64,000 nucleotides of DNA from Rickettsiales bacterium (GCA_018969185.1 JAGWYT010000001.1:78112-142111), one strand, 5' to 3'. Counted from the first letter of the stretch, positions 24,446-25,639 are shown. Program-made: numbers and translations. Notes: a model not told the origin generated them from the letters alone.

Positions 24446-25639
24446 TTAGGATATTGCGCAGGATTGACTTTCTTCTTTTTCTTTTTCTTTTTTTAATAAG
24501 GATGCAGTTTGCTCTTCCTCCTCATTCGCTTCTTCATAAGAAGAAGTTTCTGATTTTTTATATTTAATTCTTCTTCTTAAAGAAGAACTAGGAGTTTCTG
24601 GCTCTTCATTTCCTAGTAATAATGGTGTGAACTCAGTAACTGCATCTTTTGTTGCTATTTCTTCTTCTCTTGCTCTTCCAATATTAGAAGTTCCTAATTT
24701 TCTTATTCTTCTTAAGAAAGAAGAAGAAATTCCTGATTCTTTGTTCTCTGATGTAGTTGTATCTACTACTATGGTGGAAGGTTTAGTTCTACGAATTGTA
24801 GCTCTTACTGGCAATTCTCTTTCTTCTAATTTAGGAACTGTATTTAAAATTATATTATCAACTCTGTTTTTTGCTCTCTCATATTCGTGAGAAAGTGTTT
24901 TAATATCTGCTTTATAGTCTTTTAGCAACTTAATTCTTTTTGTATCATCTTTAAAAATATTTTGAATTGTTTTTTCAAAACCTTCTGTTTCATATTCCCT
25001 TCTGTTAAAGCTTGGAGAAAATTCTTCTATATTTATTAGATCTTTTTCGATGCCAAAAATAAGAAGTTTTTCAATATCTATTAATTCAGGAATGTTTTTT
25101 CCTTCTACTGTGCGTTTTCTTAGCCCAGATCTTGATTCTTCTAAATATGTATTATTTTTTCTAACATCAATTATAATTTTTGCGGCATCTTTAAAGAATG
25201 ATTTATTTTCTACATAAGCACTATGTTCTGTCAAAAATTCTAAGGCATTAAAATTTTCAGTATCACTATATTTTGCTGATGCTTTAAAACCAACTCCAAG
25301 AAACCATTTTAAGCCAACTCTTGATTCTTCCGTAAGTATTTCAAATAATGCTTTAGCTTGTGTTTCTTCGTCAAGTGAATCAATATCTATTATGTGAGAA
25401 AGGGCAGTAATATTAACACCTTCTTCAAAACTTCTACTCTCCTGTTTTTTATCTTGTAGGCAAGCAGCTTCAACTAATTTAATTAGTTGTTTTCTTTGTT
25501 GATCTGTTTCAAATCTGATTTTTTCATTAGGGCCACCCCTCATATAAGTTTTGTGAGACATGATTTCTTTGCAGAGTTTGCCAATCACTCCATCACCTTC
25601 AATATTATTATCAGAATTAATAAATTCTAAAAGTCTCAT
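24446..25639 (-). CDS. orphan protein with a charged low-complexity tail ending in CaaX box CAIS
   Basis: 397-aa ORF with no family I recognise. I read the C-terminus directly from the DNA as ...EESQSCAIS then stop. There is an internal duplication SSSFLRRIRK / SSSLRRRIKYKK. Confidence 0.6.
   Translation of the reverse strand: MRLLEFINSDNNIEGDGVIGKLCKEIMSHKTYMRGGPNEKIRFETDQQRKQLIKLVEAACLQDKKQESRSFEEGVNITALSHIIDIDSLDEETQAKALFEILTEESRVGLKWFLGVGFKASAKYSDTENFNALEFLTEHSAYVENKSFFKDAAKIIIDVRKNNTYLEESRSGLRKRTVEGKNIPELIDIEKLLIFGIEKDLINIEEFSPSFNRREYETEGFEKTIQNIFKDDTKRIKLLKDYKADIKTLSHEYERAKNRVDNIILNTVPKLEERELPVRATIRRTKPSTIVVDTTTSENKESGISSSFLRRIRKLGTSNIGRAREEEIATKDAVTEFTPLLLGNEEPETPSSSLRRRIKYKKSETSSYEEANEEEEQTASLLKKEKEKEESQSCAIS

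Follow-up and report, generated by a model that had tools for sequence, protein, structure and literature searches.

A CaaX-tailed protein family of uncultured Rickettsiales as candidate effectors for prenylation by a eukaryotic host

The DNA analysed here is a stretch of 64,000 nucleotides from a Rickettsiales bacterium (GCA_018969185.1, JAGWYT010000001.1:78112-142111), called the window in what follows. It carries, at 24446..25639 on the minus strand (as do all features of this gene given below), a complete open reading frame (ORF) with an ATG start, which occupies a variable slot between rnc, the RNase III gene, and a convergent hdaA-like gene. The encoded protein is 397 amino acids long and terminates in ...SQSCAIS-stop, i.e. 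in a CaaX box (C394-A-I-S397, 24449..24460). A preliminary description, made from the sequence alone, had drawn attention to this ending, and the codons bear it out: they read TGC GCA ATA TCC, with the Cys codon at 24458-24460, and are followed by TAA at 24446-24448. The protein had been described as an orphan and as a candidate effector prenylated by a host. Sequence comparisons now place it in a small lineage-specific family in which the CaaX ending is kept by selection, and we consider prenylation by a eukaryotic host to be the probable reason for it.

The closest relative, P0002, was found by a word-indexed search in a lake metagenome; it is 48% identical to the window protein and ends in GKGCCTIM. 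Since the RNase III genes adjoining these two genes are 90% identical, the window gene evolves fast. When 1.84 billion representative proteins were searched exhaustively with HMMER, only five others came up at E≤0.001, with no recognisable eukaryotic family among them, and a scan of Joint Genome Institute (JGI) metagenomes yielded one extra member, ending in KRGKKTNKCAIM. A second word-indexed profile search gave no further members. Neither the protein nor the family alignment had a match among GTDB species genomes, and the genus is apparently absent from the representatives. Related loci were obtained via rnc: 21 of them, with rnc genes 57-73% identical, were fetched from GTDB genomes, all of them uncultured freshwater metagenome-assembled genomes (MAGs), about half labelled Rickettsiales and the rest Rhizobium or Alphaproteobacteria.

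The homologues fall into two subfamilies. Subfamily A ends in CAIS (the window protein), CTIM, CIVM (P0003), CVIM (P0005) and CAIM, and has one member without Cys. Subfamily B consists of the slot protein of locus L016 (284 aa, ending in CSIS) and five relatives 44-52% identical, with the endings CVIA, CAMS (three times) and CVIS in addition to CSIS. The two are homologous at the profile level only (hhalign probability 90.9%, E 1.1e-6, 182 columns), with ∼13-16% identity and tails that cannot be aligned. A Cys at position −4 within a canonical CaaX was present in 11 of the 12 detectable homologues. Pfam and NCBIfam contain no family matching the window protein, and Pfam returned only noise for the 12 members; as a member of this small family, the protein is not quite an orphan. 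A further slot protein, that of locus L022 (366 aa, ending in CCAIL), was compared as a possible homologue, but its hhalign probability was at most 14% and its own search found only itself; it is counted as a positional analogue only.

A lone CaaX ending among the ∼60 genes of a 64-kb window is not significant by itself, the Cys frequency being 0.9%. A control set was therefore drawn from 284 kb of the window and related genomes, with 272 ORFs that are each 100 aa or longer. A Cys at −4 was found in 10 of these ORFs; seven were genes of the rnc-hdaA slot, all with a canonical CaaX, and the other three ended in CEEN, CTRE and CTRE, which are not CaaX boxes. Because the ending is conserved in 11 of 12 homologues and occurs in none of about 265 control ORFs, we conclude that it is maintained by selection and is not a chance occurrence. 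A constraint acting on the DNA rather than on the protein, such as overlap with hdaA, was also considered and was rejected because the CaaX codons differ between loci (the Cys being TGC or TGT) and because the ends of the subfamily A genes do not overlap hdaA (gaps of 1, 1, 8, 11 and 111 nt); in subfamily B the overlap is 4-11 nt and never extends as far as the Cys codon. Contigs from four lake or soil runs, of low coverage only, contained no variant in the CaaX codons.

The tetrapeptide CAIS conforms to the specificity of farnesyltransferase (FTase) and geranylgeranyltransferase I (GGTase-I), i.e. a Cys at −4, an aliphatic a2 and an X residue which is S, M, A, Q or C, or else L or F. As a proxy for a predictor, we used a screen in yeast that covers the whole set of 8000 CXXX sequences (PMC10320760, File S4). 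The scores of CAIS there (Ydj1_HM 4.51, Ras_HM 18.76) put it among the best canonical motifs, comparable to CAIM (4.10 and 19.94), while CAKA has 1.67 and 1.05. For CAIM, in which both lamin B1 and YKT6 end, modification reached 100% with the yeast as well as the human FTase (PMC11152559). Within the family the residues at a1, a2 and X vary and yet stay within the FTase/GGTase-I preferences: the homologues have I, V or M at a2 and S, M or A at X, an X residue of L being found only in the L022 slot protein.

Between the folded part of the protein and the box lies a charged tail of ∼125 residues (269-393, 24461..24835), for which AlphaFold2 (AF2) gave pLDDT values below 50 over residues 269-373, and which is predicted to be a disordered linker. 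It contains two basic motifs. The first, SSSFLRRIRK (residues 305-314, 24698..24727), is within a segment of ∼45-50 aa that is missing from the relatives; the second, SSSLRRRIKYKK (residues 351-362, 24554..24589), is the copy that relatives keep (TLRRRKAS..KYSEIIP and similar). Both arise from a 45-nt in-frame direct repeat (24562-24606 and 24697-24741, 135 nt apart, 73% identical), which substantiates the internal duplication reported earlier, the evidence being slightly weakened by the low complexity of the sequence there. An acidic block, YEEANEEEEQ (residues 368-377, 24509..24538), stands just upstream of the CaaX-proximal segment, and in relatives this position is likewise taken by an acidic patch. 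More generally, the tails of subfamily A share short islands, namely LRRR, KYxxI-P, the acidic patch and S-x-L-[LI]-P-x-K. In several members a basic stretch directly precedes the CaaX Cys (e.g. KRGKKTNK-CAIM); a second Cys lies beside it in P0002, with the ending CCTIM, and in the slot protein of L022, with CCAIL (homology unproven); and two members have no Cys other than that of the CaaX. The tail had been thought of as a flexible, partly polybasic linker. The flexibility and the basic motifs are there, but the latter are 35-90 residues upstream of the Cys, and the last 30 residues before it have a net charge of −6. Because eukaryotic CaaX proteins without a second signal behave so, we would expect by analogy that the window protein is targeted to endomembranes rather than to the plasma membrane.

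A tail motif, [ST]-x-L-R-R-R-x(2-5)-[ST]..K-Y-[SA]-x-I-[IL]-P, recurs at 24554-24589 in the window and in the tails of P0003, P0005 and the L026 protein (4959-5888). Its R-R-x-S/T core resembles, speculatively, a site for basophilic kinases of the protein kinase A (PKA)/AGC type.

The N-terminal domain (residues 1-268, 24836..25639) was modelled as all-helical by AF2 on an alignment of 12 sequences (pLDDT 72, pTM 0.72; 61 is the pLDDT of the full-length model). Neither a signal peptide nor a transmembrane segment was detected in the protein, with a maximum 19-residue hydropathy of 1.02. Foldseek searches of the PDB recognised no fold (best E 0.3 for the full-length model and 0.77 for the domain), and no ankyrin structure was among the matches. 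When the family profile was compared with PDB sequences, it matched only designed ankyrin-repeat proteins (E 0.007-0.36), and the most conserved block of the domain, residues 98-140 (LFEILTEESRVGLKWFLGVGFKASAKYSDTENFNALEFLTEHS, 25220..25348), aligned over one repeat unit in the classical ankyrin register, as one degenerate ankyrin-repeat-like unit. The paralogue without CaaX in locus L013 has a sub-threshold Ank_2 match (E 8.5e-4). The search for remote homology suggested in the preliminary description thus brought out one ankyrin-like unit and no fold. From these alignments it is likely, but unproven, that the domain is ankyrin-derived, and it looks like a protein-binding scaffold. Homology to Legionella AnkB was tried and rejected: no F-box or Ank match was found in Pfam, and the relatives among the 1.84 billion proteins are metagenomic only.

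Immediately upstream of the CaaX gene is rnc (25642..26328, minus strand; TIGR02191, E 2.9e-65), which served as a synteny anchor. The ATG of the CaaX gene is 2 nt after the rnc stop, and because of this 2-nt spacer the two genes are probably co-transcribed and possibly translationally coupled. At the other border, the stop codon is 1 nt from that of the hdaA-like, DnaA-related gene on the opposite strand (23776..24444, plus strand), whose matches to Hda/HdaA models are weak and all below the cut-off. Upstream of rnc are lepB and gpmI, and beyond hdaA are gatC and ruvX. All homologues with enough flanking DNA share this arrangement: rnc, then the gene of interest, converging on hdaA-gatC. In the uncultured freshwater Rickettsiales MAGs, lepB ahead of rnc also belongs to the conserved order.

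In bacteria, era is the usual gene after rnc, and it is this position (the 25639-25642 junction) that the CaaX gene holds. A candidate identity as the Era GTPase was rejected, as Pfam and NCBIfam gave no GTPase or KH match and the model is all-helical.

Across related MAGs the slot is variable. It is empty in several of them (L007, L010, L015 and L018); in four genomes (L002, L003, L005 and L006) it contains a gene of ∼335 aa resembling TauD-family dioxygenases, and in L017 a genuine ankyrin-repeat protein (7077-8006; Ank_2 E 1e-20). Some genomes have two paralogues in tandem, the first without and the second with a CaaX, which points to duplication accompanied by gain or loss of the lipidation tag. 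The tandem pairs were seen in L028 (1980-2885 and 3030-3857), in L013 (3437-4354, followed by a truncated gene after 4400) and in L027 (201-500 and 534-1436); the CaaX-less member, of ∼300 aa and ending in ..TGTERIN or ..NAQSIN, directly precedes the CaaX-bearing one.

A CaaX that stays strictly C-terminal through extreme divergence, on a soluble protein with a disordered linker, is explained most economically by the use of a eukaryotic prenyltransferase. Several further traits are those of effectors: fast divergence, no export or membrane signal, a disordered tail, an ankyrin-like unit, tandem paralogues, and an ankyrin gene in the slot of a relative. We therefore think it probable that the window protein is a secreted effector which, by analogy with AnkB/Pel of Legionella, is farnesylated by a eukaryotic host. 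According to this proposal, the bacterium would deliver the soluble, fast-evolving protein into the cell of a eukaryote, which is probably a protist or alga of the plankton, most plausibly via a type IV secretion system (T4SS). The host FTase would recognise CAIS and farnesylate Cys394, GGTase-I acting instead on relatives ending in L; as for other canonical CaaX sequences, the protein would next lose its -AIS tripeptide and have the Cys methylated at the endoplasmic reticulum (ER). The lipidated end, on its flexible linker, would hold the helical domain at host membranes, on their cytosolic side. The candidacy put forward in the preliminary description is therefore strengthened by the conservation of the motif, by its fit to the enzymes and by the Rickettsiales label of relatives, whereas the delivery, the prenylation, the target membrane and the host are steps that we infer.

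The nearest known counterparts are AnkB/Pel of Legionella pneumophila, Dot/Icm effectors that the host farnesylates or geranylgeranylates. In them, too, a canonical CaaX follows a flexible tail, the protein itself has no membrane segment, and the N-terminal domain is lineage-specific and fast-evolving, with ankyrin repeats in AnkB and one ankyrin-like unit here. The E-rich acidic patch near the C-terminus of the window protein is also reminiscent of the 'E-block', which is one type of Dot/Icm signal (PMC13081727). In contrast with Pel, the window protein has no sequence or fold similarity and no F-box; its carrier is alphaproteobacterial (Rickettsiales) and not gammaproteobacterial, so that the machinery, if the protein is secreted, would be a VirB-type T4SS and not Dot/Icm; and its gene is in a housekeeping operon slot. 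The double Cys of P0002 and of the L022 slot protein recalls the prenylation and S-acylation of SifA of Salmonella. SifA and GtgE, effectors of the type III secretion system (T3SS), also have a C-terminal Cys motif, which the host modifies and which promotes membrane association (GtgE: PMC13423502). They differ in the secretion system, in their unrelated folds, and in being enzymes or adaptors with known targets, whereas no activity can be assigned to the N-terminal domain of the window protein.

Among eukaryotic proteins, the tetrapeptides of K-Ras4B (CVIM), lamin B1 and YKT6 (CAIM) and yeast Ras2 (CIIS) are identical or near to those of the family, in which CVIM and CAIM occur verbatim. Eukaryotic CaaX proteins also share the hypervariable disordered linker, with the basic residues or second Cys seen in several family members; unlike them, the proteins described here are encoded by bacteria and have no GTPase, lamin or SNARE domain, and the window member is acidic near its CaaX. 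Finally, ankyrin effectors of the same order, Anaplasma AnkA and Rickettsia RARP-2, resemble the window protein in their helical repeat-like scaffold and disordered C-terminal part. However, they are not known to carry a CaaX (none was found in our literature search), and the window family is below the Pfam ankyrin thresholds.

The rest of the window informs on the bacterium itself. Its GC content is ∼33%, and its sequence was found mainly in freshwater or lake metagenomes, although a single sample labelled soil metagenome accounts for three runs, the best match among them. Besides leuA, ilvD and hemA, the window has hemC, nuoD, pgi, a resistance-nodulation-division (RND) efflux system, a TonB-dependent receptor, MreC, DsbA/DsbB and a type II/type IV-pilus ATPase. 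Rickettsiales are mostly host-associated. The T4SS is reported to be almost fully conserved among them (PMC10847448). UBA1997, a freshwater low-GC family of Rickettsiales described as a 'transition' family, keeps amino-acid biosynthesis and was located by catalysed reporter deposition-fluorescence in situ hybridisation (CARD-FISH) attached to cryptophyte algae (bioRxiv 10.1101/2023.01.31.526412). The same preprint reports an enrichment of ankyrin-repeat genes in host-associated and 'transition' Rickettsiales and is silent on prenylation. The window genome may belong to UBA1997. An intracellular lifestyle had been suggested at the outset. With the retention of leuA and ilvD, the type IV pilus-like genes and the occurrence in lake plankton, however, an epibiotic or facultative association agrees better than an intracellular one of the classic kind.

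Three pilin-like paralogues, all on the minus strand (21796-22793, 51324-52232 and 60660-61235), combine an N-terminus of the prepilin N-methylation type (..FSLIELS..) with Laminin_G_3 and a C-terminal Y-L-G-Q-K-[WY]-x-I; Pfam matches two of these three LamG proteins, the third being assigned by the shared C-terminal motif only. The first copy looks broken, as its N-terminus (22647-22793) is encoded by one ORF and its LamG part (21796-22254) by another, and short ORFs lie between the two. The RND efflux permease (17787-20150, plus strand) is only 787 aa long, compared with ∼1030-1050 positions in the models, and matches in two stretches (best profile 4-599); part of it may have been deleted internally, or the gene may be decaying. 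It is flanked by an HlyD-like gene (16629-17588) and by a NodT-type outer-membrane factor (20213-21787). A PIF1-like helicase (13047-14333, plus strand; PF05970, E 7.5e-36) adjoins a DsbA-like gene, and the pair is conserved in L027. Two small nuclease-type genes, a PIN-domain (VapC-like) protein (49781-50179, plus strand) and an NYN-domain protein (30224-30751, minus strand), are present in an otherwise housekeeping region.

Several observations weigh against a host-prenylated effector. For a bacterium that occurs in lake plankton and in one soil-labelled sample, and that keeps leuA, ilvD and hemA, host association is putative. No gene of a T4SS, a T3SS or another secretion system was found in the 64-kb window, the only secretion-type ATPase being the type II/type IV-pilus one, and no RNA run was listed that holds the window gene. 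Effector genes are not usually coupled so tightly to a housekeeping gene as this one is to rnc, only 2 nt away. The acidic run-up to the Cys gives this member no K-Ras-like plasma-membrane signal. The motif is also missing from some members of the wider family: a close homologue, P0004 (L025, 39-1139), ends in REHRFSK and has no Cys anywhere, and three remote paralogue types (L011/L013/L028-1980, L014) have no CaaX. A frameshift that would restore the box in P0004 was looked for and is not present. P0004 is on a short contig, where the downstream sequence looks like a tRNA gene and not like hdaA, and it may be a relocated copy that lost its tag.

The position of the gene could be read in another way: the protein would stay in the bacterium, and its C-a-a-X would serve an endogenous purpose, as a thiol or metal site, a tag for a CPBP/Rce1-like protease or an unknown bacterial lipidation, perhaps linked to RNA processing or replication control. 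The coupling to rnc, the housekeeping neighbourhood found in all relatives, and the lack of a nearby secretion gene and of a detectable export signal are all in keeping with it. We nevertheless regard it as unlikely, since no bacterial process is known to need a C-terminal Cys-aliphatic-aliphatic-[S/M/A/L] and the permitted substitutions match the preferences of the eukaryotic enzymes precisely. Moreover, in many close relatives the slot is absent or has unrelated genes, which argues against its occupant being a core partner of rnc or hdaA, and the divergence is extremely fast relative to rnc. Anchoring to the bacterial inner membrane by a protein prenyltransferase-like enzyme of the bacterium itself is highly improbable: nothing direct speaks for it, CaaX-type protein prenyltransferases are eukaryotic, and no prenyltransferase was present among the annotated ORFs of the 64-kb window, to which the search was limited. 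The motif itself is described as eukaryotic, and the bacterial proteins that carry it as relying on host machinery (PMC13081727).

We give equally little credit to the CaaX being a relic, inherited for example with a gene that had come from a eukaryote, or to its being neutral and serving no function today. The ankyrin-like unit does hint at a eukaryote-like ancestry, and some paralogues lost the motif and kept the gene; however, the motif was kept across subfamilies that have diverged to ∼13-16% identity, changes at all three non-Cys positions stay compatible with it, and the five database matches belong to no recognisable eukaryotic family. A different matter is the route by which a host-prenylated protein would reach its host. 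For a planktonic, small-genome bacterium one could imagine vesicles of the outer membrane, ingestion by a grazer with subsequent lysis, or the type IV-pilus/type II machinery, of which the window encodes the ATPase along with several pilin-like proteins; no T4SS gene is found there. Such routes seem to us quite improbable, because type II secretion needs a Sec signal peptide, which the protein does not have, and because known CaaX effectors use a T4SS or a T3SS (PMC13081727; PMC13423502). Delivery as a secreted effector, followed by farnesylation in the host, thus remains the reading that we favour.

Host prenylation of bacterial proteins is well documented only in a few pathogens, mainly Legionella and Salmonella, and our literature search found no natural CaaX effector described for Rickettsiales. 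The mechanism proposed here is thus known, while the family, the lineage and the genomic setting are new. That this family represents the first natural prenylation-motif effectors in Rickettsiales, from small planktonic freshwater lineages that retain amino-acid biosynthesis and were thought to be free-living or surface-attached, is a tentative suggestion on which we would rather bet against than for. The lifestyle of freshwater Rickettsiales (free-living, epibiotic or intracellular) is debated, and since a conserved CaaX makes sense only if the protein meets the eukaryotic cytosol, the family would offer a marker of host interaction that can be read from genomes, together with a defined genomic slot where CaaX genes arise and turn over. 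If the tentative suggestion above is true, the rnc-hdaA slot would be an effector nursery for CaaX genes and their tandem paralogues, one relative having a true ankyrin gene there. The CaaX ending would then be direct genomic evidence that 'transition-stage' bacteria already inject proteins into algae or protists and make use of host lipidation, and this strategy would predate obligate intracellular life in Rickettsiales.

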